This document shows positions 349-57,794 of a stretch of 64,000 nucleotides of DNA, in pieces (the first letter of the stretch is position 1; each line of letters opens with the position of its first letter). A program made the translations under genes and the position numbers. The notes beneath the pieces were generated by a model, which saw nothing but the letters and a program-made list of their open reading frames with translations, did no database searches and was not told the DNA's origin. This DNA is from Takakia lepidozioides. Its lineage: Eukaryota; Plantae; Bryophyta. The stretch covers positions 22,072,001 through 22,136,000 of the forward strand of contig CM060731.1 of assembly GCA_030704615.1 (NCBI GenBank), given 5' to 3'.

Positions 349-619
349 TGAGCAGTACTCCCTGCCTGCTCAATCAATGACAAGGCCTCATCCTGCCCCA
401 TCATCTCATCCTTGAGGACCTCCTCAACCCGAGAAGAATCCCCAACCTCATCCATCACAGCCGCCTTGGCTCCCAACTCCCTTGAACCTCGAGCACCTCC
501 CACGTGTGCCATAGATGTTTACACCCCGTGGTCCTCACTTGCTCGCCCCCACTCACTACTTGTACCATCTCGGTAGGCAGAGAGACCGTAAAGGGAAGTG
601 CACTCCGCACTCTACGTTG

Positions 620-1580
620 CTCAACCATAGCCAAGCTGATAATCCAGGTCAAGCAATTGAGATCCATCGCTTGCCCCAACACCCGACGACGTGATGCCTC
701 AGAAAGAAAAGGCACCACCGTGGTCCCAGTGGAAAAACCCATAGCCCGCTTTTGCTCGTCGGCATTAGGCTCCACTAACTGCTGCAACTGAGCATCCTAC
801 AGGAGGTCAGGTCCACTATCTCGGAAAGCATGCGATCCTGGGAAGCTGAGCAGTGTAGGTGGTGTTGCTCATGGTTGACCCACCTTGTTGACCACTGCCA
901 AAGGCGAACAGTCATCGTGTCTCACACGCTGAGACTGCCTCCCTGTGTACAAAATGCTATTCACTATGAGGTGTGCAGGCCGCTGCACCCAATCAAATGC
1001 ATGCTTGAACAGTGCGGGTGACATCAAGTTAGTCCACCATAACCGTGGACGATAAGCCTGTAACCCCACTGCAGCTGCATCCAGCAACACTGCTGACCCA
1101 AGCCACGACCAAACTTGATGCACACTGGCCATCACCCTGGCCGGAGAATCGCCCATCAGTGGCACATTCTCCAAGATGTATGCTGGAGATACAACTTGAT
1201 GAAGCTGTAAGTGGCGCAAAACCCGCACCATCTCTCAAAACAGACCCGACCTCGAGTCTCGCAATCCATTGTCATGCCCGGCTGATGAATGCCCTTGGCG
1301 GGGCCAACCTGCCACTACCAGATCAATGGAGCCAACCCACTCCAAATCCTGCGCTCCCAGCAACGAAATGTCAAGTCCTGCTGATATCCACGAACTGCAG
1401 ACACCGGCAACAACTCAGGGTATTGTTGCACCAACTGAGCAACATGGCGTAGGGAGATGCGTCGTGCGGTCTTATCCCTCTCCACATAGAGGTAACGCCA
1501 AACTCTTTACACATGCCTATAGAACAGCAGCCAACTCGGTGCTGATCCCACCAAACAAGTTTAGAAGGCAAATGCCTTCA
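620..1580 (-). pseudogene. C5 cytosine DNA methyltransferase domain (Dnmt3-like) inside the retrotransposon polyprotein, inactivated
   Basis: Motif I LLNLFGGIS (1541-1567); motif IV DLVVAGWPRQGHSSAG (~1280-1325, catalytic Cys position is CGC/Arg); motif VI YILENV; motif VIII AYRPRLWWTN; motifs IX/X KRAMGFSTGTT...RRRVLGQAMDLN. In-frame stops and frameshifts present. Confidence 0.9.
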
Positions 1581-1859
1581 TCCGGACACTGCCACATGAT
1601 CGGTGTGGTATCCAATGGTGACAACTAAGGTGGTCCTGGTGCAATTTCCGTACTGTCCTCTTCTCCTGACGGTACAAACGCCTCTACCCAGGCTTATTGC
1701 ACACGACAATCAGCAACCCGATACAAATCCTTGCTCGAGCCCTACAATGGAGTGTGAGCAACCATGGCAAACAACTACGCCATACCATACATGTCATCAT
1801 GCTCTTCCGAAGGTGACACATCCTCTGAATGAGTGTTGTCATCCAACAACTCTCCAGGC

Positions 1860-2425
1860 CAAGTCACTGCAGCTATGAATGCTGCCAATGTCGGCATCTT
1901 GCCTCGTTGGGCAACCGCAATTCCTCCTATAAACATCATAGGGAGCTGCACATGTCGGCCCTCCCCTGACTGCCCTCCAGGGCTATAGGAAGCTGACTCC
2001 TCCCAAAAATCCAGGGTGAAGCCCATGGGGTACAACACTGCCCCACCAACAAGGACATCGTACGAGACTGTGTCTATCACAATGGCCTTGGCTCTCATCA
2101 CTGAGCCATCTGTAGGATGATCCGGTTGTAGTCTGATAGCCAACTCATGTCGTATCATGCCCCAAGCCTGCTCTGATCATCCCAGAGATGTCTGTATCTG
2201 GAAAGGGCACGGCTCCATATCTGCCTCCATGAGGCCCAAGCCTGCAATAGCAGCTCTGCCCATCATCAATGGCTGAGCTCCCGAGTCCAACAAGACTTGC
2301 AGTGGCCGGTACCTCTTGCCTGCCGGTCCACTCAACCAGAAAAAGCCATCTTCGTTGTCTAACATGACAACTCCAGCTGTCACCATGGCGCGCTCAATGG
2401 CTGACATAGCTGGAAGCTCCGCCAA
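1860..2425 (-). pseudogene. Retropepsin-type aspartic protease of the Gypsy element
   Basis: LQVLLDSGAQPLMMG active-site motif, followed by YDVLVGGAVLYPMGFTLDF (D-x-I/L-L-G-like C-terminal motif). Confidence 0.85.
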
Positions 2426-2840
2426 CCTGGCAGCTGCAGCTTGTCATGGCGCCGCCGTGGCAGTCTTGACCCTCACATCCGAGGATCCCTCCGGCACTAC
2501 ACCGCAGCTGACTCCACTTGCACCAGTGGTACTCCTGCCCCGTACATAGTGGTAGTGGTAGTGCTGCCCGACACTAGTGGTAGTGGTGCCCCACCCACAG
2601 TGGTAGTGGTAGTGGCACCACTCACTAGTGGTAGTGCTGCCTCGCACATGAATCCATGCCTCCCATGTCTCCTCCCTCAGGAGCAGGAGGTGGACCATCC
2701 GGCCTTGGAGCCGGTACCACCTGAGCTGTGGCCATGGCAGCGAGCCTCTGCTCTAGCTGCTGAAGCCGGTTGGCCATGCCTTGGTCAACACCCTGACCTC
2801 CACGTTCTTGGCCATGTTGAGCTTGCCCTTGGCCTGCACC

Positions 2841-4194
2841 TCATGCCTGACCACCTCGTCCTCTCTGTGCTGCTCCACCTCGCCCCCGGCCACCATTGTT
2901 CCCTTGGAACTGGCCTGGGCGCAACTCAGGATGCAAACCATAGAACTGGGCCTCTCCATGCCCGTAGTTGCCACAATGCCCACATTGCAACTGTGCAGGC
3001 TGTGCCGGTGCCAAACCATTGCCTCCCTCTGGGCAATCCTTCTTGACATGGGGTCCTCCACATGTCCAGCACACCACATCCGCCCGTTGTTGGCTTGCAA
3101 ATGAAGGGAGAGACCCCTGCAATCTGAGGTCCTCTTTGCCCTTCCCTGGGCTTCACTTGAGCCCCCTTGTTGCCTTGAGCACATTGAGGTAGTGGCTGGC
3201 TAGGAGCACCACTACCCCGTGGTGCCTCCTTAGCAAATCCCACCATGATCACTCGTTCCTCCACCATGTTGAGCTCTATCCGCACTGCTAGCAAAAACAC
3301 ATTTGCTAAGGTGGGTTGGGCCGCTTGTTGGAGAGTTGCATCTCGCACCGTTCTCCTCAGCTCTTTGTCCAATATCCCATACCAGAATTGGACTGCCTGA
3401 GCCTCCCTAACCCCTTGGGTTACATTTATCAAGCGCCTCATGCGAGTGAAAGCCTCCCTCAAGCTCTCAGTAGGCTTCCGTTGGAACTCTTGCAAGCTTC
3501 TCAACTTCTCTGTCATCACCCCTTGGTAGTTCCTTCTCAACTCTTCGATGAACTCCACAATAGGGTTGAAGGCAGACACCGTCACTAGTGCTGGTGCAGC
3601 AGTAGCTTGGGTGGACGTCGTAGTTGCTGTACCACTAGTCCCACTACTGCTTGTGGAAGCTACTGTTGCACTTGCAGCTGCTGGTGTAGCTGCCGGCGTG
3701 GCTGCTGCCCTTGTGCCTCTAGTGCCTCTAGTGATGGAGACATAGTCGGGTGACCAGTACATCCTCCACTCCTCGATCTCAACATCGTGCCCCCGCCTAA
3801 ACTCATGGTAATCATCCATGGGCGGCCCCTCAAGGTGCTGAAACAGCCCCTTCCATGCCATGAAAGGCGTAAATAGTTGTGGATTGCGCATTAGCTGCAA
3901 GTCACACCAACTATCAAACTCTTGGATAAAATCATCCAACTCAATGGTGCCCACCGCCCCAGAGTACCTTCATGGCCCCTTGGTAGTTCCATACATCTCC
4001 TCCATTGTGTCCCACGACAATGACAAGGAAACAACTTGCACCGCCGGTGTGAGTCCTCCTGATTCACAATCCGAATTAGAACCTTCCATAGAAGACACAG
4101 GAGGTGAAGGTGGCCTAAACCGCACACCTCGTCTCGTATACCCGCTATTATCGCTAGTGCTCGTACCGGCACTTTCCCCAGCAACTAGTGGCAC
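2841..4194 (-). pseudogene. Gag with two zinc knuckles, frameshifted and with stops
   Basis: Retrotrans_gag-like LQEFQRKPTESLREAFTRMRRL. Knuckles CWTCGGPHVKKDC and degenerate CGHCGNYGHGEAQF, then an RGG-rich tail. Confidence 0.85.
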
Positions 4195-5440
4195 CTCCGT
4201 GTTGACAAACTGAAACTCAACTGGTCATGAACCTATCTCTAACACCCTCTCCACAAGGTAACCGGGTATAGAACCTGATGCGGCTTATGGTTTGGAATAC
4301 TAGGTTCCTAACATAGCCTGCACCTGCACCTGCATCCACCGCAGGAACTCCTATGGTTGGTTGGTCATCATCTCCAACCTCACCACAGGAGAAACAAAGA
4401 TGGTCTGACTGGTCATCAACCCAGCCTCACCATCGACAACATGTTCTAGGGTTGAATTGGCGATCAAGCCCGAGTCAACCACCTATAAAATCAAGCGCCC
4501 ATACAAAACTAGCATGACGCACAATTAAGCATGCGGGTGTGGAGGGGATCCAAACACAAGAATGAAAACAACAACTCCCCCACACCAAAAACAACTCCAC
4601 AATGTCGCTCCTGCAACCTAGCCCAAACCCGGACTGACTATTGTCTCCACCTACGGAAATGTCTCGGCCTACAGAGAAGGTGGAAAGCTATGAGGAAGGG
4701 AAACTAAAGCAATGCCTATCCCCAGCACGCTCTCATCCCAACACCTTTTTTTTTTTCTCTTTTCTCTCACTTGCATGACCATGAGAGCATCCTGTAGACA
4801 CTTCTCAAACCGCCCTCCACGAGCTCATGAAACTTGGCCTCCAAGGCCCCATGCAAGCCTCCACAGGGTCTGCCAGTGCCTCTTTATGTCCACCAACCAT
4901 TCCTCAGAATGGAACCACCTTAGGAAACCACACCATTTGCTGAAGGTTAAAAAATGGAGCAAATAGAGGTACATATAGGCCCCAACAACATACTATCCGA
5001 AGGAATTACCTGCAGGCTGGTCTCCCCATAGTTAAGAATTGGGTTTTTTATTTATTTTATTTTATTTTTTTCACTCTGCCTGTTCGCGGCCTTCCGTGGC
5101 TCTAACTGCCACGACTCCTCACAGCCCGCCTAAGGCGCTCGTTGGCCACGGGCTGCCCGTGATACCCTGTGGTACCACGCCCACGAGCCTCCACGGCCCG
5201 CCATCCCCCGATCTGGTCACCGTGCCAACCCGTGGTGTCCGCACCACGGCTTCCAACGGTCACGGTCAACAGTTCCCTGCGTTCCCATGAACTCCACACG
5301 AGTTCTCATGCGTTCCCGAGGCGTCCTGGGCGTTCCCACGCGTTCCTGAGCTCTCTCCGAGCTGGGGTTTGCTCCTACAACTGCTGCCACTGAGTGGAGC
5401 CATCAGCCCCGTTGCCCTGCACTCCTGAGCTCTCATGGCC

Positions 5441-7189
5441 CACTAGAAGCACCCTAAACTCAACAAGCAAGCAATATGCTGCCCAACAAGCTCCATTTCT
5501 TCATGAAGCTCACAAAAACTGTTGGCTATCAGTTTTGTACAATGTGGCCATTTACATGTTGGGTACTTCAAACTATTAGTAGATGCATTGCTAAATGTAA
5601 CTGCTAAGGGGTGTTGGGTGTGATGTTTGCAGGCTGAGAAAGCCACTCTTGATATTGCCACCGACAGTGCACCAACTACGGCGCCTTCAAAAGCAGCCCC
5701 CAAATATCAACCCCCTGCCACAGTGGCAGATATTCTTATGCTACCAAAAGTACTTTGTACTTTGAGTGATTGCTTATACTGGACGGTCCTCATTATCTAG
5801 TTTTCAATGTACATGTAAGTCTTCATGGGTTGATTAATGTGGGTTTTATGGTGGGTGTTGTGTGCAGTTTAAATTGAAGGACAAAATCAGCCTGTATGAT
5901 CCTCATTTACCACGACACAAGGCTGCTTGTGGAATTGTCACTGGTGTGCCTGACAAAGACACATATCATTGCCGTATTATACCTAAAGGATTGTGGTGGG
6001 TTGAGGTGAATGATATCTATATTGCCAATTGTGTCTTGCCTCACCCTAACGAGGAAGAGGTCCCACCGCAAACAATGTTGGAGGATGTCGTCGGTCTGAA
6101 TTGTCTTTGGCCAGAGAAGAACATGAAGAGGGCTTAGATTTCGTTCGTCCGGGCATAGACATTGCTGGCAGTGAGAAGAAGGCAGGAAAGCAGTTCAGTG
6201 TTCCTAGCATGCATATGGAGACGTCGTGTAGAAGTTAGGCTCAGACTTTTATCATGGCTGGATTTTGTTGACAGTGTTCCAACACTTAATTCTCTGGGAT
6301 TCTAGTCTATTTTGTGGAGCTTGAATCCCCAATGGTACTTCTTTCACTACACTAGTGGTATGTGTTCCTCTAGTCATGTTCATAATCACTTGCACATCAC
6401 TGTAATAGTGGTATAATTTAAAACTGTGGGAGTAGCCAAATGCACACAATTGCCTACATTACCACTCGTATAGTGGTATAAGTAGTCACATATATATTAC
6501 TGTATTAGTGGTATGAATTCCTCTAGTGGTATTCCTAAACACTTACACACCACTCTGTAAGTAATCACTCCAATCCATAGTTCCCACTCAGAGAGACACC
6601 ATGAATGACTCAAATAGCTTACACACCACTATGTGGGTAATCATTCTAATGACCTGTTGAGAGACGTCATCCACTCACATAACCACTCTGTGAATGATAT
6701 TGTATATTCTCCATTTTCATAGAATGACTCTATGAGTCATTTTGTGATCACTCAACAAGTGGTTTCGGAAGTCATTGAATATCACTCCATCCATTTCGTA
6801 GCACTGACACATGACACGTGTCCATGCTGAGAGTGTCACCACGTGTCGACATAATCTCCAATATCATCCACGGACCACCGGCTTACACGTCTCCACTACA
6901 AAACGGAAGTGGTTACTTTACCACTATGACACGTCATAAGTGGTTGGTTTACCTCAGTGACATGTCACAGTGGTTAATTTACCACTGTGACACGTCAGCT
7001 AACAGGTGGACCCGGACGTGAGTGGTTCGAACCACCGTCCTTAACCACCGGTGCCACGTAATGTCTTTTACCACTCACTTGTCCTAATGCACTGGTTCTT
7101 CATCACTCTGGGGCCAGAGTGGTTTAGTGTCTTTTACCACTCAAAATGAGTGGTTAACAGAGTGGCTATTCCGCGTTTTTCTTCTAGTG
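5441..7189 (+). mobile_element. 3' part of a CACTA transposon (TnpA-like exon, subterminal repeats, TIR)
   Basis: Ends GTGGCTATTCCGCGTTTTTCTTCTAGTG at 7189, followed by TCA. ACCACT/AGTGG repeats at 6340-7170. Left boundary approximate. Confidence 0.8.
5868..6137 (+). CDS. Terminal exon of a CACTA TnpA/ORF2-like protein
   Basis: Starts after a TGCAG acceptor. The pattern GIVTG...H...IP.G.WWVEV..I....LPHP......T.LEDVVG.NCLWP resembles the C-terminal domain of CACTA accessory proteins. Lies just inside the TIR. Confidence 0.6.
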   Translation, partial: FKLKDKISLYDPHLPRHKAACGIVTGVPDKDTYHCRIIPKGLWWVEVNDIYIANCVLPHPNEEEVPPQTMLEDVVGLNCLWPEKNMKRA

Positions 7190-7589
7190 TCATGAGGTTG
7201 TGGCATAGCAACCACGGGACGCATCTCCTACCTCTAAGTCTGCTGGACTTAAGGTTGCAATTACGGAGGACAATTGGGAGCCTAACATTGGACCCATTGT
7301 CTTGGAGGAGAAAGACAACGTATACGGTGGTTCCTGAGGGCTTACAGGAATTGCTTTGCCTTCAGTTTGAAAGATTTGGGAGCACTGAAGGGTCAGAAGA
7401 TTCATATTGAGTTGGCCACAGACACGCCAATCTTTCGGAGACCCTACAGGTACAGTGACATGGAGAGTTCTTTGATTTAGATGAGGACTCAAGATCTCTG
7501 GGAGGCTGGTTTGGTGGAGCTCTCTGGTGGAGAGTATTCTTTAGCCACGGTGATACCAGCCAAGAAGGATGTCTATGGCAATTGGACGG

Positions 7590-8336
7590 GGGTGAATGCA
7601 GGGTTGACTAGACCAAAATAGACGTTACCGACACAGTTTTAGATGACTGCAATTGATGGTGTCATCAATTGAATTTGAATTGACTCATTAAAACCAGAAA
7701 ATATATATGTCATTGAATTCCTAGCTTCAATACGCACCCATCGCAACTCTTCAATCATGAATCCGATAAGAAATGACTGTGCTATGGACTTTTGAATACC
7801 GTCATTGTGGATTGTTACCGCAGTGAATGGAATTACAATGGACTTAAGTTCTCTTATGTGCCATTGGTGAATTCCATTGAAATTTGGACTTAAGGTGACC
7901 ATTTTGGTCCACATCATAGGTATGGATTTGAAGTGGCAAAATCATTTGTCATTTGACTCATATGGACTAATATATGTCCAAGAAATAGGCGTTTTTTTAA
8001 AAGTCCATAGTTTTATCTTGTTTTTTGGATTTTGGATGTCATTGTTTTTCTAGAAGTATAAAAACCTATAATCTTCAATGGCTAGGTGGCATATTGATTT
8101 TTTTTGTAAACTCTAATTTTTAGTTTTTCATAATTTCTCTAAATAATAGACTAAAATATTTAATGAATTATATCTTTAATATTTGGGGTAGAACTCTTTA
8201 CTAAATATGTTCAGTATACCATTATCTATCACTAAGAAAATATTTTGGATAGTATCATCAATTTTTTGTTTTTTGGTCATGTACTTTCATAGAGCAGGAT
8301 CTGCCGTTTTTGGTCCATTTAACTGTGCAACTACCC
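7590..8336. mobile_element. MITE (~747 bp) with imperfect GGGT TIRs and 4-bp TSD ACGG, inserted in RT
   Basis: ACGG at 7586-7589 and 8337-8340. TIRs GGGTGAATGCAGGGTTGACTAGACCAAAA / GGGTAGTTGCACAGTTAAATGGACCAAAA. Removing it restores the NWT-ERRMCGDY frame. Confidence 0.9.
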
Positions 8337-8619
8337 ACGGAGAGACGTATGTGCGGTGATTACCGGCCTGTAATTCGTCAGACCAAGTCCAATAAGTATG
8401 CCATGCCCACAGCGGAAGAGATCTTTGATGGCATTGGGCATTTCAAGGTATTTAACACTTTGGACTTGCGGTCCGGATATCACCAGTTGCCGATCAGGGA
8501 GGCGGACAAGCAAAAGACGACATTCTGGGGGATCAATGAGCATGGGAAGGATTGCCTATATCAGTGGCGGTTCTTACCATTCGGGCTTAAGAATGCTCCT
8601 ACAAAGTTCCAAAGAGTCA

Positions 8620-9080
8620 TCCCCCTGATAGGTCGTCTCAAGATGGGCGTCGAGGTCATCCTCGCCTTGAGCTCCTGAAAAGCTCGCTCTTGCTCATCTT
8701 CCCACTGCCACTCCTAGTCTACCTTGGTCAGCTTGGTTAGAGCCTTTGCAATAACACTAAATCCCTTGACAAACCGTCTATAGTAGTTTGCCAACCCCAT
8801 GAAAGCTCGAACTCGGCTCACATCAGTGGGGCATGGAATCTGTGCAATGGCCTCTACCTTAGTCTGCTGCACCCCCAATCCTCCAGGATATATCATGTGG
8901 CCCAGATTCTCAATCTGGTTGTGGAGAAACTTGTACTTCCCCGGATGTAATTTCAATCCATGCACTCTCAAGCGCTCAAACACCACCTGAAGGTGTTTCT
9001 TGTGCTCCTCCACCATAGCACTAAAGATGATGATGTCATCTATGTAGCACCGAGCAAAGTCTATCCCTGCTAGAACCCTT
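8620..9080 (-). other. Internally inverted RT segment (YIDD motif through connection domain)
   Basis: Minus strand reads RVLAGIDFARCYIDDIIIFS...FMGLANYYRRFVKGFS...TPILRRPIRG, which fits between plus-strand FQRV and PFQLHTD. Confidence 0.92.
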
Positions 9081-9907
9081 TCAGCTGCATACAGATTGGA
9101 GCATGCTGGGGCTTGGAGCAGTGCTCACACAAGTGGATGATGAGGGAAGAGAGTTCGTACTGGCTTATGCTAACCGCTCGAACAACGCTGTAGAGTCTAA
9201 GTATAGCTCATATGAGGGGGAGTGCTTCGCTCCAGTGTTGGCCGTGGCACACTTCAGGTGCTATCTATACGACAATCTCTTCACCTTTGTCACAGATCAC
9301 CAGCTACTCAAGTGGTTAATGGAGTCAGACAAGCTTACGAGGAAGCTTGCACAGTGGGCACTCATACTCCAAGAATATGACTTTCAGGTTGTGCATCGAC
9401 CGGGTTTGGTCAATAGGGATGCGGATGGATTGAGTCGCAATCCATGCACGAGTCAGCAGGATGATACTGGAGCTCGGTGGCATAATGAGACGAACGAGGA
9501 GATGGTGTAGGGATGACATGCATCTGTTTTTTTGTGTATCTTGACATCGGGAAGTTAGGTTGGACCTACAACATGGATGACTGTAGACGGAGTGTCTGAG
9601 GACCCCGAGGCTAGTGATGAGCCAGGTGGTGCCAAAGATATGCATGAGGATTCGGTTGTGTTGGACTACCTCCACACTGGAGACACTGCAGCTAGTGTGA
9701 CTGCCAAGGAGAGGGATCGGATCCTACAACGAGCCAAGAGGTTCAAGTGGGAGGGGATACACCTGCTTCGAGTGTGGGAGGATGGTCTGGTGAGGATCGT
9801 GCCTCACCCAACACAGCGTGCACGGTTAGTGCGGCAGTTTCATGTGCAAGTATGTGAGTTTGAGAGAGCTTGTGTGCTTATATCTTTCCTTTCTTTATCA
9901 TTGTGAT

Positions 9908-10015
9908 GGGCTACTGGCAGCCTAGTGGTGGACTAGTGGCTGCACTAGTGGTGGCTAGTGGTTGTCTAGTGGCAGCCTAGTGGTGCATTAGTGGTGGACT
10001 AGTGATAGACTAGTG
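9908..10015. repeat. Degenerate ~11-bp tandem repeat with CTAGTGG core
   Basis: Repeated ctagtgg units directly after the truncated pol; probably 3' UTR/LTR sequence. Confidence 0.65.
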
Positions 10016-12224
10016 TTTGGTATGCACATGTGTTGTGTGGTTTTGGACAACGATGTAGTTGTGTAGCGATATGTATGCGCACGACATCTGTTATTGGCTG
10101 TGCATGGCCTGTTTGGTTGAACCTGGTACGCTGAAACCTGGAACTACCTCCTGAAGGATCCATATCCGTTGTTGACCATGCCTTTGGAAGAATACCTCAC
10201 AACAAATGTTTGTTGTGGATATTGCGAATGAGTATATCTTTTCTCTCTTGCAATGATGATGGTTCTAGATCCCGGTTCTGCATGATGACCTAGTTTACTA
10301 ATCAAATCATCACTGATCTTCAAGTAGAAGTTCCTCGCATTGTTGATTTGGTAGTTTCTGTTGATCAACATTATAAATATCATAATCTATGTTTGATAGC
10401 TATACGCCTGAATTTTGTTGAGCTTGTTTGATAGATCTATTATATATCTACATGTACTTGTAGCGACTAAAATCATCAGTGGACGGAATAGACTTGTAGT
10501 TGAGTCACAAAATGGTAGAACCTCCTCACAGCCAAATGAGTGTCATTCTACTATCCATACAGTGGTGGAACTAACCATGATGCATCATGTATAATTGCCT
10601 GGTCAAAGGGAAAGATCATCACAGCAGCATGGGTTGTAGGGGAATTATATGGCTTGAGCTTGCAGCTCTGATTTCCAATGAACCAACAGTTAAGGCATTG
10701 CAGCTATTTATTGTATATAACCCTCAGCCTCTATACAACACAAGGTCTCCAAGCAAGGCTGGTCCCAAAATAGTAAAGCAACGGGAGCTTATGGCACGCG
10801 GACTGGCTTCTAAGTTGTCGGCTTCTTAAACTGATCAAGACTCAGAAGCCTTGGTTTTTGCAGATCTCTCTCACAATCCCTCTCACAAATCCCTGAGCCT
10901 CTCAATTGCTTCAAAATTAGCCCTACAAGCAACCCTACTGATAAAGCTAGGGGGACTGTAAACCATGGGGTAGATAGCCCATGGCTCTGGAGAATCGGTC
11001 AGCAGAAAAACTGACTAGCCATCTTCAAATATTAACTCCATCGCATCACTGTAGCAAAATTAGTATGAAAACGGACACAACAGATATTATATATGTATAG
11101 GGGTTGATCTAAGTTGTTTTCTTTTCGATAGAAAGGGGACGGAGGCCCAGAGGTCTACTTTCATGGATTGTGTTCACGTAAGAATGATGCACACAAACTG
11201 CTTTGCATGACTGGAAAGACGGTGTCGCAATCATGTCTCTGCTTTTGCAAATGTACAGGAAATTACTAGCTCTACTGCTTCTTCTCTTAAGATCTTTATA
11301 TTACACTCCAAAGGATTACATGGCTCATATTACTTCTTCTATACCAAGATGCAAGTATGACCGAAGCATAACCATCCTCGTGAGCTCTGTTATTTTAGCC
11401 ATCCTGAAAAGCTTCCAATAGTCGGGAGCTAATCGGGACAGGATATACTATGACCCAGCGGAAGTATGACCGACTCCTAATTCGGTCGCAGGTCATTTTA
11501 GCAGCCCGGTTATGCAGGGATAACCAGCGCCTAACCGGCTAGGTACGGCAGAACCCAAAGTAGGTAACATTTAATCAATGGATGTGATCCATGGTCAAAA
11601 TTGTTTTACATGAATCTGTCATAGAACGGGAACGGGTTTACATGGAAATTAACAAAAAAGAGTTCCATGTGAATCCGAACCATATCACTATTTTCTCTTA
11701 ATCCCACTTTGTCATTTCAACACATCTGATTCTTTCTAGGTATGATCCATACAACTGTCCAAACATTGAAAGTTACATTCAATTTATATATTTTGACCTC
11801 AATGAATTGTTACTCTAGAGTTTGATTTTCATAGAAATACTCGTATGAATTACATCCATGATCTAGATTGGCAGTTTCCGCTTGAAATCTTTATTAGGCT
11901 GCATCCCTCTCACCCTGAATCTTTTGTGGAGTATTTGGATTGAGCCATAACCTGGATTGAGCCATAACCTGCAATCATATAGAGGTGAATGCACAATAAC
12001 ATGATGCAATTGCAAACATTGATGTGGGTAAAAAATACTTATATAATGTTTCTTTTTTCCTTTTTGTACTACATTTTTAAGTTTAGAATGTACTTTAAAA
12101 TAATAATAATATAATCACCCAAAATCACAAGTATATACTTAGGTTATTTTTTCCTTAACCATTAACTGCAGGCCATTGGGCAAATAATTTCACCTCCAAA
12201 TGAGCCCATGCCAAAAATCGACTA

Positions 12225-15969: not shown

Positions 15970-17220
15970 TATGCGAGAAGAATGATGAAGGTCAGAGGGG
16001 TTAGAAAGGAGCCAGGTCGCTGCTGCATTGAGATTTGCAACAGGGTGCACACCTTCGCTGTAGATGACAGGTTGCATCCCAGAATTAAGGAAATCCATGC
16101 TGAGCTGAGAAGATTGTCTGGGCAGATGACAGGAGGCGGGGTATGTGCCTGACACGTGCTTTGTATTTCATGATGTGGGGAAGGAGGAAAAGGAATTTTC
16201 TCTTTGCCACCACAGTGAGAAGCTGGCCATTGGTTTTGGGCTGATCAGGTTTGTGTGTATTTGCAGTGCGTGTGCAAGCCTGGCAGCCCTGGAGAAGGGC
16301 AAAAAGGTGCATGGTTGCATTGCCAAAGCTGAAATTGTACCAGATGTGATTATGAACAATACCCTCATGGACATGTATGCCAAATGTGGGAGCATTGAGG
16401 ATGCGGAGGGAGTGTTCTTGCTTGCAGGATATGCCAGCAGGGGCGCAGGATGGAGGCCTTGGAGACCTATGAACAAATGCTGGGGAAAAGGTGAAGTGCA
16501 ACCACATCACGTTTGTGTGCATTGGCAATGCTTGTGCAAGCCTGACAGCCCTGGAAAAGGGAAAAGTGTGGGTCCAGATTCAGCAGCAGCGGCACAATTC
16601 ATAAAATCAGGCACTGCTAATGAAGACACCTTCTTCAAAACATTTCACCCTGTTTTCCCCTCTTATCGAAATCGTCCTTAAATTTTCATGTTCATTTCTG
16701 CAAGTTACTGGTTGAGTAAACCTTTGATAGTTTGCTGAGATGTGGTGTCGTGGAACTCGATGCTTGCAGGGTATGCACAGCAGGGGCACTGGATGAGGCT
16801 TTGGCACCAGATGTTGTGTTTGGCACACTATGTAAATCCACTAAGACCAGGGAGTAGTTGAGCAGCTCAGTCTGAACCCTTTCCTAGTGCCAACAAACTC
16901 TGATGTGGATTCACGCCAAGAAAGGTCTGGAAGCTAGAAAGCAGGTGCACACTCACAAACATCGCATGGTATGCACAGCAGGGACGTGGGATGGTGGATT
17001 TGGAGACCTATGATCAAATTATGGGGGAAGGGGTGAAGCCCAACCACATCATGTTTTTGTGTGATTGCAATGCTTGTGCAAGCCTGGCAGCCCTGGAAAA
17101 GGTCAAAAGAGGTCTATGGTGACATTGTCAAAGCTGGAATTGTACCAGATGTTATTCTGAACTCTGCCCTGGTGGACATGTATGCCCAATGTGGGTGCAT
17201 TGAGGATGCAAAGCAAGGAA
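15970..17220 (+). pseudogene. Scrambled PLS-class PPR / E+ / partial DYW fragments
   Basis: PG box KEPGRCCIEICNRVHTF, YVPDT...[13 protein letters not shown], then out-of-order PPR motifs ([31 protein letters not shown]). Frameshifts present. Confidence 0.88.
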
Positions 17221-28699: not shown

Positions 28700-31600
28700 T
28701 TAGAGTTGGAAAAACCGGCGCCGAGCATGCTGCTTTTGGCCCCAGGTGTCATGGAAGTCTTGAAGCAATTTCCTCCCTCGCTGCTCCGAAGTTCTGGAAA
28801 CAGCTACACAGACAGTTAACCAAGCCTTCCGCCCCTCAGTCAACAGATCTTGGTAAGTATTGAATAATACCGATCTGCCCCTGGGGGGTTTTCCCTCATA
28901 AACCCAATCACATCTTGTTTTCCATAAGTTCCACAAGGTAAGCGCTCTAAGAGCAGCCCAAACCAGGCAGATAGTTTGCACTTGACCCACGGTGAAATTC
29001 AGAAGCAACAGAGAAGGTGGGGGGGGGGGAAGAGGGGAAGCTATTCCACCAGGAGTAGAAACCAAGAACCAAGTGCCAGACTCTAAACAGCCAAATTGCA
29101 AAACATCAGGCAATGTTCAATGGATTCGGGAGAAGAACCACACAGAGAGCAGTTAGGGTTGTCTTCATGGGTGCGTTCTCTGACTGGAAGAATTCTATGC
29201 AGGATTTTCCATAGAAAACCGGATAGCATGGCTGGTCTGTCTTTTCTCCATATGTCTCTCCAGATTTTGTCCCATCATTGGTGGTCTAGCAACGGGATGC
29301 CCCATTTTGCTTTCCACTTGAATTCAAATGAACGGGGGGGTTTAGGAGGGAGTATCTTTTTTTCACGGAGTACGCAAAGAAAGGGGTCTTTTTCTATCCA
29401 TCCCTCCCTGGGATCAAATTGCAGGTCTACTAGTGGGCAGCTCAGAAACCAGGTGAGGTTTTCTTGTCCCGCCCATTGGGTCTCCATACCTTGCGGGGGC
29501 AGCGGGTTTGGGTTGCCCAGATTATCCAGAACTCTGATGTGAAAGAGGTCAGCTTTATCTGCTTCCATTCTTCGTTGATACTGAAGAAGACCATCTCCAT
29601 CTGCAGAAAAACCCAGACCTGTTGCTCTAACACCTTGGCAGGCTGTGACCAGCATGACCGGGGTCTGAATCTGCTGACTAGTGGCCATCCAAGTGGGTAT
29701 TTTTATGACCAATGCATCAGCGAGGAGAGGTTCCATGTACTGAGGCACATTTGCCAGAATGGTGTCCCAGGTTTTAGCTCTTCTGTGCCCAACCATGGTG
29801 GCGACTTGTGCCTTGGATAAGAACTGATGATGATAGCGCATGTTTGATATGTGCGTGAATCCTGTCTGCTCCCAAAAAGCCCACTGCGGGGCCTGCGAAA
29901 GAAGAATGTCTGAATCCATGTTATAATTAGCAAAAACAGGCTGTCTCAAACACTCCTGGTGAGTCAGAGGCATTCGCTGCGTGAGATTGCCTCTCACGCC
30001 ATGCCAGGCCCTCCATATGGACTGCCATGGTTTGGAGCCCAAGGAAATAGGCCCTTCTTGATGGGGCCGCAGAAGTAGCTCCCCATATGAAATTACGATT
30101 GAGCGCCTTAATTTCTTTGACCATGTCCTCATCTGGGTCCCAAAACTGCCGTAGAAAACCACATTGATGCCACCAAAACCTGGTTAGCAACTAAAGCTCT
30201 ACCCACAATGGAGAGCATTGCAGCACTCCAGAATGCCGGGTTTTTTTTTAGCCTAGCAATCACATCCTTGAAGCGGTCATGATTTGACATGTTGAGACCT
30301 ATTTGATGGCCCAGCAGCTTGTGCGTTCGGCCCTCTTGCAGCCACCCAAGACCCATGTCTGCCCCCCATGGCTGACAATGGCTTGTCGTTGCCTCATTAT
30401 GCAGCTTGGACAAAATGCACATTGATTTTTTTCAATTGACCTTGAGCCCTGTAGCCAAACAGAAGGTGTGGAGAATTTGAAGTGCCTTGTCAACGTTGGC
30501 CTTAGTGGAGTTGTCCAACAATAGAGTAGTGTCATCTGCATACATTGAGAGTTTCAGCATCTCCGGGGTCAGTGTGGGCAAGTGAAGGCCAATGATGTCT
30601 TGCCTGTAGTGCAACATGTGACCCAACGAGTCCGCCGCTATGAGGAAGAGGAAGGGTGCCAGGGGGCAACCCTGCCGCACCGATCTAGAAATGTGAAAGG
30701 GCTTCAATATAACCCCATTAACCATGACCTTGCTGGATGTTGCATGCAAGAGGATGTGGACCCATGTCAGGAAGGGCCCCCCAAACCCTGATTTCTCCAT
30801 AGCCCCTTCCAGAAAGGTCCAATCAATGGAGTCAAAGGCCTTTTCAAAATCAAGCATTAAGAAGGCCAGCGGCTGGCTGTTTATTTCTGCTCTGTGGAGG
30901 GCCTCGTGGGCCAGCAAGATGTTGTCTAAGATCATGCGATCTTTGAGAAAGCCAGTATGCTCTTTCCTAATAATTTTCGGCAGGAGAGGCTGCAACCTCA
31001 AGGCCAAGGTCTTTGCGATAATCTTGTAAGTTGAGTTTAGCAAAGTGATTGGCCGGTAGTTGGCCATATCTTCTCTATCTCATTAAAGACTAGAGTAATG
31101 AGACCTTCCGCCATCTGCGAGGGCATTATCTGTTTTACTATAATATCATTAGCCATAAGGAGGAAGTCCTCCCCAATTGTATGCCATAGTGCTTTAAAAA
31201 GTTCAATTGGGAGACCATCCAGTCCTGGCGACTTTTGTGATGCCAAAGAGTTGACCGCCTGCCCCAATTCATACACTGACAGGGGGGCTGCCAGGTTTGA
31301 TTTGTCCAGTTGAGAGATCGAGGAGGGGATGTGGTGCAACAAAGCCGCAGTTGCATCTTGTTTCTGCTGCGAGGCATCTCGCCTTTGAAACAGAGCTTGA
31401 AAATATGAGGCTGCCACTTCTGCCATGATTTTTGGCTTATCTACCAAACGTCCATCTGCATCTCGCAAAGCTGGGACCATTGTGGCAGCTCGCCACTGCG
31501 CAGCCTTAACAAAGAAATATCTACTCATTTTCTCCCCTTTAAGGCTCCAATTGACTCCAGCTTTGACTCTGGAGAATTGCTCCTTGGCGTGTAATAGCAT

Positions 31601-32677
31601 GGAGAGATTCCTCTTGGCATCTTTGTAAGCAGTTATGGTGTGTGCTCCCTCCAAACCCGACTGCAGTTTGAACTGGCAGACTTCCAAGCACTTAGTCAGA
31701 GCCTTTTGCCTTCTCGTATTGTCCTTTGCCTTTTCCCTTGCCATGACTTTACAAAGGTCTCTTAAAAGTTCCATCTTCGCCAAGAATCTGGCAGTGGGAG
31801 AGACAAGCTGTGTGGTTGCCGATTCCCAGACATTCTGAAGGGTCTGTACGACGATGGGGTCCTGCAATATGCTTGGGTTTAGCTTGAAAAAACCCCTGCC
31901 TCTCACTCTGGACCCTCGGGGTGTTGAGCATCAGTTGCACCATGGCATGGTCAAACTCCGGGAGGATAGGCTGCAGCGGGACACTGGTTGACCAAGACTT
32001 TAGAGTGTAGGAGCAATAAAATTTGTCCAACCGAGCCTGGCATAGGTGAGGGGGGTCCTTGTTGTTCGACCAAGTGAATTTCAATTCTCCCTGGCTTGGA
32101 GACGAAGCGTCGAGCGGCCCCACTAGCAAGCACAAGGCATCCCAGGTGTTCTTTTCTGTCATGGAGAGACCATTCACCAATCTCCCAAGCCTGTCTCTTT
32201 TTTCCTCCACCATATTGAAGTCGCCGCCTACCAGCCAGTGCTGGAGATGATGTCACTGCTGCATGTTACATCTGATCTGGTTCCAGAGGTCTATCATGTC
32301 TTCCTCCCCATTTGGAGCATAGATGTTTAGAAAACCCACTTGCCCCATTGATTGACCTATGTTCAAGACAAGAACTGCACTCTGCCTTGCAACCAGATCT
32401 CATGGGAGACAATGGATTGTTGTAAGGAGGGGGAAGCAAGGATGGCTGTGCCCCCTCTGGAATCCGAGATGGTGGGATTCCAGAAGGTTGTGACCGCTGG
32501 CCAAATGGAGGCACCAAGGGAATTAATTTTTTGTTGATTTAATTTATGTTCTTGCAAAAAGATAATATTGGAACCACGTAACAGAGTGGAGGCCCGGGCT
32601 CTGACCCTTGCCCTTTTGGGGGCAGAGTGGTCAGAGCCAAGACCTCGCACATTCCAGGAGACAAGAGACAAATTCAT
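28700..32677 (-). pseudogene. LINE ORF2: APE endonuclease, reverse transcriptase, zf-RVT
   Basis: SWNVRGLG, IIFLQEHK, ARLDKFY, FDHAMV; KSPGLDG, NYRPITLLN, LDFEKAFD, VRQGCPLAP, YADD; LWNLWKTRC. Multiple frameshifts. Confidence 0.95.
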
Positions 32678-33975
32678 GTGGATGTGACTATCAGGCCCAC
32701 GCTCTTTGCGTGACTTGATGGCCATTGTAGGAGGAAGAAATACTTTGAACGCTTGTTGGCTGGTGGCGGGGTGGTGAACCACTTAAACCCTTGTGGAGGA
32801 TTGATCAAAACAAGGAGATGATAGGTGAACACAATCGTTGCCTTTTTTCGTTTGCAGTTGTTTTGAAAAGGTACGAAGTGGGTCCCTCCGTCTCTAAGAA
32901 TTGAAAACATGTCTGCAGAGATGTCCCAGGCTAGAGCTTTTGAAAGGCGAGAGAGGGATTGTGGGGAGGATGGAAGGCCTGCTGAGTTCCACCAGGCTGG
33001 CAGGATTTTCTGCTTATGAACATTGTCCAGCAACAAAGTCCGTACCCGTTTACAGTCTGAGTGGTCAAGCACATAAAAGAAGAGGGGGGAGCACGCAATA
33101 GAGATGCTCACCTGTGGGGGTGAGTCCACTGTCTCTTCTGTTAGCAGAAAGGTGATGGCGGGATCTGCTGCAACATTTGAGGATGTATTGAAGTGATTTG
33201 TGTTTGCCAGCACCAATTGCGTGTTGAGATTTGGCTCCTGCTGGGGTTGCCCTGATTCCGTCTGAGGATGTAGCAGCTGGTAATGCTCATCTACCAGCTT
33301 GGAACCTACCTCCATTTTTTTTGTGCCTCTTGCCCACTCAGTTGGGTCTTTGACTCTGCAAGACAGGTAGTGCTTACTCACCCAAATCAATGAGTTATGA
33401 GCCCCAGAGGTATCCAAGCCCCTACCAAAAATAACGGGCATGACATGAACAACAGCAAGATCTGGAAGAGAGGCAAAATTTTCAACCATTATGCCAATGT
33501 GCTGCATATGAGATAGAGTCAGGTTCAGTTTTGGAAAGAAGTCATTGAGAATGTTTTGCATGAGGGTCAATGCAAGCTCTCTTTCTTTCCCGATGCCGAA
33601 CTGAAGAGCCAGGGCTTCTGAAACCCATGTAGACCAGAATCCTTGCTTCACACTTGGCATGAAGAAACTGGTGTAATCATCTACAAAATTGTAGAGCAGG
33701 GGGGTGACACATATTGCCGCCTTTTCTCTCTGAAATGAGGAACCTGGTTCCCACCCTGGCAGGGGACTGAGCTTGAAAGAATGCAACTCCAGAATCGTTA
33801 TTGCCACGCTGGTAGAGTCTAGCTGCTGCATATCAGAGACTGAGAAAGGGAAGGAACCCCAAGCCTCCATGATGCGCACTGGGAAGAAGCCCGACCCTGT
33901 TGGTTTAATGGGGGACTCCACTTCAATCAATACTGAGCGTCTTTTCCTTATCTTGGAATGAAGCATGTCAACCAT
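32674..33975 (-). CDS. 433-aa open frame of unknown function between LINE ORF1 and ORF2 (separate ORF or frameshifted ORF1 C-terminus)
   Basis: Uninterrupted ORF. Its TGA (32676-32674) overlaps the ORF2 ATG (32677-32675). Confidence 0.65.
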   Translation of the reverse strand: MVDMLHSKIRKRRSVLIEVESPIKPTGSGFFPVRIMEAWGSFPFSVSDMQQLDSTSVAITILELHSFKLSPLPGWEPGSSFQREKAAICVTPLLYNFVDDYTSFFMPSVKQGFWSTWVSEALALQFGIGKERELALTLMQNILNDFFPKLNLTLSHMQHIGIMVENFASLPDLAVVHVMPVIFGRGLDTSGAHNSLIWVSKHYLSCRVKDPTEWARGTKKMEVGSKLVDEHYQLLHPQTESGQPQQEPNLNTQLVLANTNHFNTSSNVAADPAITFLLTEETVDSPPQVSISIACSPLFFYVLDHSDCKRVRTLLLDNVHKQKILPAWWNSAGLPSSPQSLSRLSKALAWDISADMFSILRDGGTHFVPFQNNCKRKKATIVFTYHLLVLINPPQGFKWFTTPPPANKRSKYFFLLQWPSSHAKSVGLIVTST

Positions 33976-34947
33976 TGCTTGATCATCTGAATTTCTTTGA
34001 GCTTCTTTCTCCTGCTGTGTTTGATTGGCCTTGGAGGTATCAATTGGCTAGGAGGAGCCCTCCTCCTTTCTTGTGAACTTGATGGTTGGGCAGTCTGCCT
34101 TGATATGCCCTTCAGCATTGCAGTGGTAATCTCCTCTTTCATTGCTACTACAATGTAAGAGTCATCCAGGGTGGGGAGTTGGATAGAGGTGCCAATGGCT
34201 GCATTTTCAGGCATGAGCACAATCTTGGGGATGCCAATGTCTTCAGTAAGTGTGACTTCGGTATCTACACTGAGAATCTTGTCCTGAGCTGGCTCCAGAA
34301 CGTTGATTGCCCCTATGAATGAGCCAAAGCTGGCACCTATCTCTGGGAGCGAAGTCAGATATGTGGGAGGTAGGAAGGGGATGGCAATGACTCTCGGCTT
34401 CCACAAGATGCCTTTCTTGTGTCCCCAATCCTGGGTCCAAGGAAAAATGTGGACTTTGGAGGCGAAAGTCGGCGTGTTGAAGCGCAGAGCCTTTTCTGCA
34501 TCTGCTGGCGAGCTAAAGATGATAGCGTAGAAGCCTTTCCCCATTGAAAGGCTAAAGTGTTGTGCCAATCCACCAGTAGTTCCTAGGTGCTCGATAATCC
34601 AAGTACGAATTGATTTTCTCGTCCGCGGCTTTCCAGGGAAGTACAAGAGGATGCATGTCTTTGCACAGCTTTTGCACTTGAGCCTGCAATTTAGCTTTGT
34701 TCAAATTTATGATAGGCTGCTCCTTGTCTTCTTTCACCGTTGTGTCCTCCCATGCGTTCTCAGTCAACAACGGTGAGGGCGAGGGGGCAGTGGCTGAGGG
34801 GCCCTTTCCCAGAATGGAGGCAGCTTCGACTTGCAGCATGGAGGATTTCCTGGTCCAAATCTGATTTTTGGCTTTCGCTGCCGGAGATGAGCCGTCTGAT
34901 ACTCCACCGCGTCTGGCCTTTCTGGAGCCACGACCTCTGGAATCCAT
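33948..34947 (-). pseudogene. LINE ORF1 (DUF4283/RRM-like), frameshift near 34646
   Basis: SMGKGFYAIIFSSPADAEKAL...VHIFPWT...IPFLP...LPEIGASFGSFI, typical of plant L1 ORF1. Confidence 0.85.
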
Positions 34948-36605: not shown

Positions 36606-38902
36606 TGCTTACCGAAGTTGCGGTGGATGTAGATAGGAATGGAGGGAGAGAGGAGGTTACACATGCCTTCCCGGAACATGATACTTGCACCTGGCGCCAG
36701 AGTGGAGGTGAGTACGAACGACCCCGGATTCGAAGGGGCGTGGTTTGAGGCTAGAATTGTTTTTTATGAAGAAGAGAGTCACCGTTGCAGGGTTCGTTAC
36801 GAGCAGCTGCTTGATGAAAATTACAAGATGTTGGAGGAGTGGGCTGACCCAGATCTCTTACGACCAATTCCCCCTTCCCTAAACATATTTCAGTGGGAAA
36901 CTGGTGACCCAGTGGAGGCCCTTGATAAAGATGGCTGGTGGGCAGGCAAGGTGATCTGCAAAATGAATGAAGAGCTCTACAAAATCGGATTCGCACAAAA
37001 CGAAACGTTGGACTTGATTGTCCCCAAAATTCGCACACAGCAAGACTGGGTTGATGGCGCATGGTCCATTGCGAGAGGGTCAATCACCAGTCCTTCCAGT
37101 GGACCTTGGGAGTCCATGTTTGCATATGGAGATCAGAAGGGCCACGAAGTGATGGATAGTGTGACTGGCTCTAAGGCATTGAAACAGCCCAATGCGAGGA
37201 AACAATACAAAAAGAGGATACCCAAAAGGCCCACAGTCAGGAAGGACCAGCCTGCAAGCAAGCAAAAAAGAAAAGGTACCCTATATTATCACCTTTCTTC
37301 TTGTGTGCCATGTGGTGCATCAGTGTTATTTCTAATAGTGTTTATAATTCATCCATGCCATTCACTGAACCAAAAGTCAACTGATAGACTTTGAAATCAG
37401 GTGCAGGACCTGGTAGATCACTTGAAAAGAAGCAAAAGGAGACTGTGGATGCCCTGGAGACAGAGGGGACAAGGGGGACAAAGCATTTGAGTCCCACCTC
37501 ACCATTGTGTGCACTCAGTTCGTCACCTTCCGACAAGACTGCACAAGGGTTTAGTAAGCATAGGCGGGACATTGGGGCTGATTTGGGTGTTTCCAGCAAT
37601 GGCTCTTCAGCATTGTGTAAGACCTTCTCAGAATTCACAAGAAGCCTCAGTGCATCACCAGATGGAATTTCCATAGATGCCAACAACACAGACAAGGTAA
37701 CAAGATTCAATTTCTACTGTACATGGTGCCATCGATTGAGTGATAATCCTTTTTGGCTTCAAGATGTTCCCATTTAGCTGAATTGCATGCTGTTTAATTG
37801 AGCTATTCATGTCAGCGTTTGTAGCATTCGTCAAATTTTTCTTCTTGGAAAATGTGGTGGAAAGGTGGAGAAAATCAAGCTTGTTGCACACCTAGGATTT
37901 TTGAGGGTTGTGCATGTGCACATGCCTCTCCATGATTTTGAAGAAGCCAAAACATCCATTGAAAAAATTACAGCCTATCCCACATTGCCAGCAAGCGAAC
38001 TCATTGTCCGAGTTGCTCAATAATGCGATAATAGTACTTTCAGATTGAGATTTGCTCTAAGGGTTGCAACATCTCTCAAACTGTGGTCTGTTTTTGGGTG
38101 GTTTGGATGACAGGCAACACAGTTGGAGCAAGTGGCATATGTTGCAGTTTTGACGGCCATGCGAGCGCGGTCCAACATGGTTACTTGGAAGGCGCAAGCG
38201 TTTCTACTCGACCTACGTGAGGCACTTCACCTCACCAATGAGGACCACCTACGTTTGAGTAAGTTACAATTTCTTGACGATAGTGGCTCTGGTATATAAT
38301 ATGTTGGAGAATCCGACAAGCTTCGCTTGTGTCATATGTTCACAAGCCTAGGAGATGCTCCACAAGACAGGAGATTGAATGCCCATAATTGATTGGCTTT
38401 CCCTGAAAGGTAGTAAGTCCTAGGGGCACCAAAAGGATCCATACTTTTTATATCAACCCCACATTTTCTGCTTTGATAGACTTGTGAAAATGGCACAACA
38501 TATTTTTGAAACAACAGGAGATGGGGGGTTGGTGGTTATTTGACGATGGATAGCGCAATGATGATCACTCCTCAGAATGTCAAGCTCAACGTCCCTGTTG
38601 CTGTCTACATCGGCAGATATTTCGGCATTTTTTTTTCCTTGTGCCAAAGTACTCTAATATGGGTCGGTGTACCTTTCTAAGCTTTCATCAAACTTCAAAA
38701 GAAGTGTTGTGTTGAACTCTGCAGCAAAGCTCAGGAACCATCATTTTGTAGCTCATACTTGGAAAGTCCTGAACCGTACCATTGGCATTGTCGTCCCCAA
38801 TGTTGTATCTGAATACCAAGCTTTTGTTGGTTTCAAGTAGATGGGACTCCGACTCCACAGAAGATCTCCATGTCTGTGTGTAAGTTTGTATTATATTTTC
38901 CC
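36606..38902 (+). repeat. ~2.3-kb direct duplication, second copy at 44155-46452
   Basis: Near-identical sequence at an offset of ~7549 bp, introns included. Confidence 0.97.
36639..38299 (+). CDS. Agenet (plant Tudor) x2 + C-terminal ENT domain protein, copy 1; exons 36639-37275, 37401-37696, 38114-38299
   Basis: GARVEVSTNDPGFEGAWFEARI, LLRPIPP, GDPVEALDKDGWWAG, RTQQDWVDGAW; ENT LEQVAYVAVLTAMRA...TWKAQAFLLDLREALHLTNEDH. GT-AG introns keep the frame. Confidence 0.88.
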
Positions 38903-57365: not shown

Positions 57366-57794
57366 CCTCTTCCCTAATGTGGCAAATGAAGGTTGATGGA
57401 CGATGCCATCCTACGCAATTAAGTGTTCCCGCCGTCAGAAACAACACGATGTAGTGTTTCTTAGTTTTAGAGTGACCTCTACGTTTTCGGAGACATAAAT
57501 GTCCCGACAATGGACTACTATAAAGGACCAAGAGTAGACCATATATTGAAGAGTTCGAGATCACGAAAAGATGAATGTCGGCTGTCAAGTGGAGGTTAGT
57601 GGACGCACTTTGTCGGGAGGCGCATTCAAGAAGTTATGCGGCTCCATATTCGTTTGTATAAAAATTACGGAGTTAGTTTGGGACCGCAAAACAAATTGCA
57701 AACGAAAGTGGAGAAATTGTTTTGAAATGTATCATTGAAGCCTTATTGGAATGTCTTGCAGAAGAACAGTGGATTCTCGCGGGCTTGGATTGAC

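Follow-up and report, generated by a model that had tools for sequence, protein, structure and literature searches.

A bryophyte Ty3/Gypsy retrotransposon family that encodes a DNMT3-like methyltransferase ahead of a conserved in-frame stop

Organization of the element copy

The window analyzed here, a 64,000-nucleotide (nt) stretch of Takakia lepidozioides contig CM060731.1 (positions 22,072,001 to 22,136,000), carries a broken copy of a Ty3/Gypsy retrotransposon that encodes a DNMT3-like C5 cytosine methyltransferase (DNMT) along with Gag, aspartic protease (PR), reverse transcriptase (RT) and RNase H (RH). Coordinates are positions in this window, and the element copy extends from 349 to about 10091. 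The DNMT domain (620-1579, minus strand) includes motifs I (1558-1544), IV (1309-1277), VI (1171-1163), VIII (1051-1028), IX (748-734) and X (679-662). The motifs named in the initial annotation are all found, on the minus strand and in the frame of the protease, in the canonical, non-permuted order with no intron. By six-frame reading, the protease and DNMT share a single frame from 2443 to 458 that is interrupted by 11 stops, including stops inside the DNMT domain, where the catalytic cysteine is replaced by arginine. The protease (1919-2323, minus strand; LDSG at 2290-2279) is a weak match in Pfam (E 0.11-0.18), while its region forms a single alignment block (E 1e-156) with the first open reading frame (ORF1) of L001, one of 76 related metagenome loci (L###; related proteins are P####). 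The Gag region (2841-4188, minus strand) has zinc knuckles, is frameshifted, and matches Retrotrans_gag below the cut-off (E 0.0024) and L001 ORF1 by tblastn (E 2e-72). The adjoining 4189-5440 (minus strand) is a probable 5' leader, in which sequencing-run depth stays high to about 4900; the 5' terminal repeat (A repeat) and self-priming site of relatives are not found within the window.

The remaining parts of the element are disrupted by other elements. The terminal repeat of a CACTA-type DNA transposon (1-348), whose other end lies before the window start, stops at 348. It is followed by the 5' part of the DNMT-to-RT linker (349-619, minus strand), which is frameshifted and of which the last three nt (349-351) are a CACTA target-site duplication. 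A CACTA-type element with both termini (5441-7189, plus strand) separates the inverted 5' half from the RT. The rest of the linker and the RT N-terminus (7190-7585, plus strand; tblastn E 7e-30 to 6e-35) open on the other copy of the CACTA target-site duplication. Within them lies an amber codon in frame; the CAA CCA right after it (stop and hexamer 7206-7214, plus strand; hexamer at 7209-7214) fits a CAR-YYA readthrough hexamer. The RT is split by a 751-nt insertion (7586-8336) with a 4-nt duplication that other copies are without; the insert is unclassified, with short inverted ends (GGGT...ACCC) and ACGG as the duplication. The first half of the RT (8337-8621, plus strand; RVT_1 E 2e-9) is followed by its second half with the YIDD motif and the connection (8621-9079; RVT_1 E 1e-11), inverted to the minus strand with joints at 8621-9079, and by RNase H and the linker to the integrase start (9079-9836, plus strand; RT_RNaseH E 2e-29), with loose ends at 9836. 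The integrase (INT) is deleted after this point. A 3' non-coding remnant (9837-10091, plus strand) has blastn matches in relatives, and its end resembles their B terminal repeat (35 of 45 nt identical to the B-A junction of L031). The window copy is dead, as first annotated: it has 11 stops, arginine for the catalytic cysteine, a frameshift before the junction, an insertion and an inversion in the RT, and no integrase.

Family order and the breaks of the window copy

The initial annotation placed the DNMT between protease and RT. In the window copy this does not hold: gag, protease and DNMT occupy the minus strand, and RT and RNase H start at 7190 on the plus strand. The order does hold in the family. 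The ends at 348 and 7189 are CACTA termini (the 348 terminus and that at 7161-7189 match at 93%), and the identical triplet beside both, read on the strand of the element, is a target-site duplication. The inverted block is bordered at 5441 by one more CACTA end, the third. The differing triplets that flank the CACTA element at 5441-7189 would be expected if an inversion had taken place between a pair of CACTA copies.

Other copies were read from contigs of public runs aligned at 80% (X1, X2 and X4 from one sample, X5 from a second). Joints on opposite strands at 349-7193 and 362-7190 join the DNMT linker directly to the RT, and a joint at 7585-8337 skips the 751-nt insert in 16, 10, 3 and 1 contigs across four runs. 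The 8621-9079 inversion is likewise missing from other copies. A 2,173-nt contig of run X9 proceeds from the DNMT end through linker and RT to RNase H without the breaks of the window copy; X9 and X10 are RNA by guess only, and the contig serves for domain order, not expression. Thus, the CACTA target-site duplication and the run contigs give a family order of gag-PR-DNMT-RT-RH. Membership in Ty3/Gypsy follows the gag-PR-RT-RH-INT order of L043 and L001, with the host order supported up to RNase H by the X9 contig. The family is repeated in the host: 56,435 contigs of X1 align to the element, and summed depth over the DNMT is about that over gag and RT and thousands-fold above the flank at 10151-10500, a sign of repetition rather than a measure of copy number. 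The window copy belongs to an abundant Ty3/Gypsy family and was itself broken by CACTA insertion and inversions. In the two runs taken by guess as RNA, coverage peaks over the CACTA interior (5600-6270), where a joint at 5690-5866 is also seen.

The opposite strands of DNMT and RT in the window and the modest Pfam score of the domain might suggest that this copy alone picked up a methyltransferase from its host or a bacterium, that an insertion is nested here, or that the DNA is an algal contaminant. These possibilities are refuted. The DNMT is kept between protease and RT in 33 metagenome loci, in the run contigs and in named Marchantia and Sphagnum records, and the host-run depth over the DNMT is on a par with that over gag and RT. 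A contig of X4 spans 10063-10255, bridging the right end of the element to unique flank with zero differences, and the window also holds DYW-type pentatricopeptide repeat (PPR), fasciclin and Agenet genes of land-plant type.

The methyltransferase domain

Pfam reports no PF00145 match for the single ORF fragments of the window. When the domain is reconstructed with X at the stops, PF00145 is matched at 35.1 bits (E 1.3e-8; cut-off 22), in agreement with the initial assignment. The window DNMT is 53-59% identical to its six best relatives, four of which are liverwort records. All 49 motif-IV matches from loci L001-L068 have the catalytic cysteine, a count made with a search pattern that demands flanking residues. 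Across 15 divergent sequences, the catalytic and S-adenosylmethionine (SAM)-binding motifs are invariant or nearly so. A profile built from 15 sequences has DNMT3A as its top match (E 1.2e-21), versus 2e-9 or weaker for tobacco-type DRM, HhaI and DNMT2 (HhaI 2e-8, DRM2 6e-7). The predicted structure of the L001 domain (predicted local distance difference score 92.3, predicted template modelling (TM) score 0.91) matches a DNMT3A-DNA structure (E 6.3e-21, TM 0.73/0.83), and every listed fold match is DNMT3A, B or C. By profile and predicted fold, the element enzyme is thus assigned to the DNMT3 class, nearer DNMT3 than DNMT1, DNMT2, DRM or bacterial enzymes. DUF3444 is not reported by Pfam in the element proteins.

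The ratio of nonsynonymous to synonymous substitution (dN/dS) is 0.14 for the DNMT of L043 and L044 (dS 0.25), compared to 0.11 for the protease and 0.27 for the RT (84 codons). Between L001 and Sphagnum-like copies, the DNMT ratio is 0.17-0.20 at a dS near 1.6, and many deeper pairs are saturated. These values (0.14-0.20) indicate that the DNMT is under purifying selection between subfamilies.

Relatives, range and phylogeny

Going by the records retrieved, the family is widespread among liverworts and peat mosses. Named land-plant records account for 18 of 32 longer related proteins: 15 from Marchantia polymorpha, 1 from Calypogeia and 2 from Sphagnum. Several of these continue into RT, RNase H or integrase. 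A profile search adds Riccia and M. paleacea among the 120 listed of 199 matches, a representative search returns 280 proteins at E 1e-30 or better, and cluster look-ups name Closterium, Klebsormidium nitens (GAQ93235.1) and Hariotina. Fern, lycophyte, hornwort and seed-plant names are absent from the 32 matches, the 120 of 199 listed and 30 clusters, a weak negative with about 8,000 candidates scored per search. In the metagenome loci, RT lies within 2.2 kb 3' of the DNMT in 33 of 76, with the protease just before in 27 of these 33; the DNMT lies between RNase H and integrase in 9 of 76, and the remaining loci are too short or without those domains. The gag-PR-DNMT-RT-RH-INT lineage that the initial annotation proposed for an embryophyte is supported by the order in L043 and L001 and by the Marchantia and Sphagnum records.

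In a DNMT tree of 32 hand-picked rows (root arbitrary), Calypogeia, Marchantia and Sphagnum share one clade with the window (99/97), and the class with the DNMT between RNase H and integrase is one clade (100/97). The DNMT trees hold no host DNMT3 sequence. An RT-RNase H tree, which the window enters by RNase H alone, is concordant. As for charophyte elements, the Klebsormidium and Closterium DNMTs lie with the window when the RH-DNMT-INT class is split off, yet on separate branches of an open fork, and the window clusters with liverworts and Sphagnum. Marchantia and Sphagnum group against Calypogeia, which leaves room for horizontal transfer; the trees do not tell vertical descent from such transfer. 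Closterium (Zygnematophyceae) records with PR-DNMT(-RT) include P0052, P0059, P0061, P0075, P0144 and P0131.

The second architecture, RT-RH-DNMT-INT-PHD in a single open frame, is noted in the 9 loci mentioned above (L049, L051, L052, L054, L055, L056, L060, L062 and L072) and in 29 complete cases among 181 proteins, with P0056, P0072, P0078, P0098 and others as further members. It forms one clade in the DNMT and RT trees; among its members is a DNMT-PHD record from the chlorophyte Hariotina. No description of it was found in the portions of the literature examined. P0209, a family member in a metagenome bin labelled cyanobacteria, is likely plant DNA in the bin. Partial matches to 29 viral contigs (E 2e-11 or weaker) were interpreted as enzymes of phages or bacteria and served as outgroup only.

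A conserved in-frame stop between DNMT and RT

The initial annotation proposed to look for protease, DNMT and RT in one ORF. The order stands, but the single open frame does not, as the two parts are usually separated by a conserved in-frame stop. The intact L043 has 1,369 codons of gag-PR-DNMT, then TAG CAG TTA, and then 1,047 codons of RT-RH-INT-PHD in the same frame. In an unbiased listing, the stop is present in 17 of 18 loci that have RT in frame with the DNMT. By motif, it is present in 38 of 42 loci (25 TAG, 13 TAA), with a sense codon in one and the region missing from three; the pattern was taken from the commonest subfamily, and three short loci, the second-architecture loci, L053, L063 and L069 were left out. 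The 42 loci represent 33 insertions of 4 subfamilies. The exact CAR-YYA hexamer (background 0.23%) follows the stop in the window, L001, L024, L043 and L044, while L016 has TAG CCA. In Marchantia, which was covered at the protein level, the models Mp4g09160 and Mp8g17980 end about 70 residues past the DNMT.

The sequence UAG CAR YYA is the readthrough signal of tobacco mosaic virus (TMV), and plant reporters give 9-32% readthrough for the contexts of TMV, beet necrotic yellow vein virus and tobacco rattle virus (PMC2754532). All parts of this type I signal (in-frame UAG, CAR YYA and a frame kept downstream) are found in the window, L001, L024, L043 and L044. The likeness to TMV would extend to a stop and hexamer that fix the ratio of a short to a long product, placed here after a retrotransposon methyltransferase. 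The conserved stop is likely to be read through to yield RT-RNase H-integrase. RNA folds computed 3' of the stop had no control to compare with and carry no weight in this reading. With the stop after the DNMT, the methyltransferase would be made at the level of Gag and the RT-integrase-PHD part solely by this likely readthrough; the stop is thus a clue that the enzyme is wanted in Gag-like amounts.

Element ends and integration

The ends are best seen in the Sphagnum-like subfamily, from which all observations on ends and repeats come. L031 has A-coding-B-A-B repeats with a 4-nt duplication (L018 is another duplication case); this arrangement is complete in L031 and partial in L006, L048 and L058, while the window copy keeps the B-like end alone. 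The target duplications of these relatives are AAGG and CACA, and a tRNA-type primer site is not seen in this subfamily. A stretch of 15-20 nt after the 5' A repeat is complementary to a stretch within A, about 27 nt past a TATA-like box, and resembles a self-priming site. This site and the repeats are at 1679-2040 and 10225-10810 of L031, with further cases in L006, L028, L030, L034 and L066. A polypurine tract lies 5' of B, A and B each run from TG to CA with 2-nt spacers, and the L031-type ends resemble a permuted circle with two long terminal repeats (LTRs). In the Sphagnum-like subfamily only, priming may be tRNA-free and from the element itself, after which a permuted two-LTR circle would be integrated. 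The integrase of L043 and of most second-architecture relatives bears a PHD finger. No preference for NCGN or CpG targets is seen in the flanking tetramers, as judged by eye on partly redundant loci.

Proposed mechanism and alternatives

In LTR retrotransposons, the Gag polyprotein is made in bulk, assembles the particle and is packaged with the RNA. Intact members of the family are proposed to encode Gag-PR-DNMT3-like protein, a likely leaky stop and RT-RH-INT, and to use a particle-packaged DNMT to methylate new cDNA, a reading held to be somewhat more probable than not. ORF1 (Gag-protease-DNMT) would be produced in bulk and build the particle, and occasional readthrough would append RT-RH-INT. 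The protease would release the DNMT inside the particle, beside the cDNA, which would be methylated before integration such that new copies arrive pre-marked. That the marks are placed in the CG context before integration, with CG taken by analogy to SymbioDIRS-Dnmt3, is an evenly balanced proposition. The fuller scenario, in which liverworts and mosses harbor an ancient, high-copy Gypsy lineage that mass-produces an active DNMT3 within Gag through a TMV-type leaky stop, packs it into particles, primes itself without tRNA, integrates a pre-methylated permuted two-LTR circle and uses a PHD integrase, is doubtful as a whole. If this scenario is true, the transposon writes its own epigenetic state, and its bursts have so far gone unnoticed as a source of de novo methylation in land-plant genomes, including that of Marchantia.

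Several observations run counter to readthrough and to an active enzyme. CAA CCC, one base off the consensus, follows the stop in 33 of 38 loci, which are one subfamily, and 13 of the 38 stops are TAA. Five translated Sphagnum-like loci (L006, L019, L021, L030 and L058) have an in-frame ATG at codon 3 after the stop, and in L044 and L016 the fifth codon is Met; a start within five codons makes reinitiation possible. DNMT and RT share a single open frame in some relatives: P0026, P0028, P0048 and the Closterium records P0075 and P0144. The catalytic cysteine is seen in relatives, and the one host copy read at this place has arginine. Recent pairs of Sphagnum-like copies have a dN/dS of 0.40-0.98, as expected of decay after insertion. 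The CpG ratio of the element is 0.46-0.53 versus 0.37 for a long interspersed nuclear element (LINE) in the same window; its CpG depletion is no stronger than that of the LINE, so it provides no signature of self-methylation and was rejected as a mark that is not specific to the element. The related KnitGypsy-Dnmt3 gave no methylation in yeast, a result described as inconclusive by its authors (PMC5890265). One alternative leaves the architecture unchanged but has RT-integrase supplied through reinitiation, from an internal start codon or from spliced RNA. It draws on the early ATG codons and the imperfect hexamer of the largest subfamily, and is rendered unlikely by the exact CAR-YYA in three divergent subfamilies and the window, the frame kept over the stop, and the lack of an early Met in L043 (first Met of ORF2 not before codon 117), L001 (not before codon 48) and the window copy. 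Splicing is further disfavored by the X9 contig (RNA by guess only), which retains the stop region unspliced.

The DNMT may instead act in the nucleus rather than on cDNA, with the site of insertion, earlier copies of the element or further host DNA as its targets, and shape or limit the spread of the element, perhaps guided by the PHD finger of the integrase. The bulk output implied by the stop exceeds the need of one cDNA, the PHD finger is present in L043 and most second-architecture relatives, and the option is among those proposed in PMC5890265. Nuclear action is nonetheless judged improbable, as the domain is within a Gag polyprotein that established LTR-element biology would package with RNA, the DNMT has no targeting domain, and no CpG preference is seen in the flanking tetramers. 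A domain kept as a nucleic-acid-binding coat or an RNA methyltransferase would suit Gag-level stoichiometry and the lack of DNA activity of KnitGypsy-Dnmt3 in yeast. The near invariance of the catalytic and SAM-binding motifs across the 15 divergent sequences, and a fold and profile of DNMT3 rather than DNMT2, make this role more improbable still. Methylation of packaged cDNA thus is the preferred reading, with the reservations given above.

Comparison to known systems

Why a transposon would carry a transposon-silencing enzyme has been a question since 2018, with Klebsormidium as the source of the sole Gypsy example. This KnitGypsy-Dnmt3 of Klebsormidium nitens (de Mendoza et al. 2018, PMC5890265) is the known kind to which the family belongs. 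The two share a Gypsy backbone, an intronless, non-permuted DNMT3-like domain and purifying selection; the A-coding-B-A-B repeats of KnitGypsy-Dnmt3 recur in the relative L031. In the K. nitens record P0087 (GAQ93235.1, marked partial), the DNMT likewise follows the protease, and the record stops just past it. By contrast, the element described here has a land-plant host, high copy number and a separate DNMT clade, and its RT is preceded by an in-frame stop with a readthrough hexamer, whereas PMC5890265 places the DNMT in the Pol ORF. In the text seen, a PHD on the integrase, a self-priming-like site and a 4-nt duplication are not mentioned for KnitGypsy-Dnmt3, and the species table includes neither Marchantia nor Sphagnum. 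SymbioDIRS-Dnmt3 of Symbiodinium, which performs CG de novo methylation and is there the sole retrotransposon DNMT shown to be active, and SymbioLINE-Dnmt are likewise retrotransposon C5 methyltransferases, but on DIRS or LINE backbones in algal or protist hosts. The EpiLTRs (bioRxiv 10.64898/2026.05.21.726589) also encode a C5 methyltransferase, yet a DNMT4-sister enzyme with DAM and a chromodomain, again in algal or protist hosts.

Phygy (REXdb, PMC6317226) is a bryophyte Gypsy lineage of similar kind (about 8-9 kb, 4-nt target duplication) that differs in its NCGN duplication, tRNA-Trp primer site and absence of an extra domain; the Sphagnum-like subfamily, in which the duplications are AAGG and CACA, a tRNA-type primer site is not seen and DNMT and PHD are added, is set apart from it by description rather than by RT tree. 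The host-type PpDNMT3a/b share the DNMT3-type catalytic domain but have DUF3444 (PMC6453930), while DRM is permuted, unlike the non-permuted, intronless enzyme within the polyprotein of the element. A 2019 opinion (PMC6338049) states that land plants such as tracheophytes have no transposon methylases. PMC12344493 and the EpiLTR preprint say just 'streptophytes', such that their trees could include land-plant sequences outside the portions seen. The literature searched, with subscription papers, theses and Repbase outside the search, yielded no mention of this bryophyte family, of its gene identifiers or of the stop. Within the literature found, in which the known kind is from algae only, the land-plant range and the conserved in-frame stop are new. 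Marchantia polymorpha is a genetic model in which methylation mutants exist, and at least 15 of its gene models carry the family DNMT; thus, the question becomes testable in planta. In bryophyte genomes, element copies moreover raise or blur the number of methyltransferases counted; PMC5784723 counts five in Marchantia.

Host and neighbouring content of the window

The host is an embryophyte, probably a bryophyte, as judged from land-plant genes contiguous with the element, and the alga or contaminant considered by the initial annotation is refuted. PPR repeats and a DYW fragment (E 1.3e-8) are present; two PPR genes (16130-17210 and 57758-59542) are broken, one of which carries the DYW fragment. 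The fasciclin gene has named matches in Sphagnum (51%), Riccia, Adiantum and Quillaja, and its tree does not separate moss, liverwort and fern placements. The Agenet gene falls in streptophyte clusters; a gene with this domain is carried by a recent duplication (36606-38902 and 44155-46452; 7.55-kb spacing, 95-100%). A decayed LINE with endonuclease and RT occupies 29275-34700 (minus strand), with a second ORF1-like remnant, judged by eye, at 47211-49997 (plus strand). At 60755-60950 and 63643-63820 are two short repeats that resemble each other and start with a tRNA-like part; they are possibly short interspersed nuclear elements.

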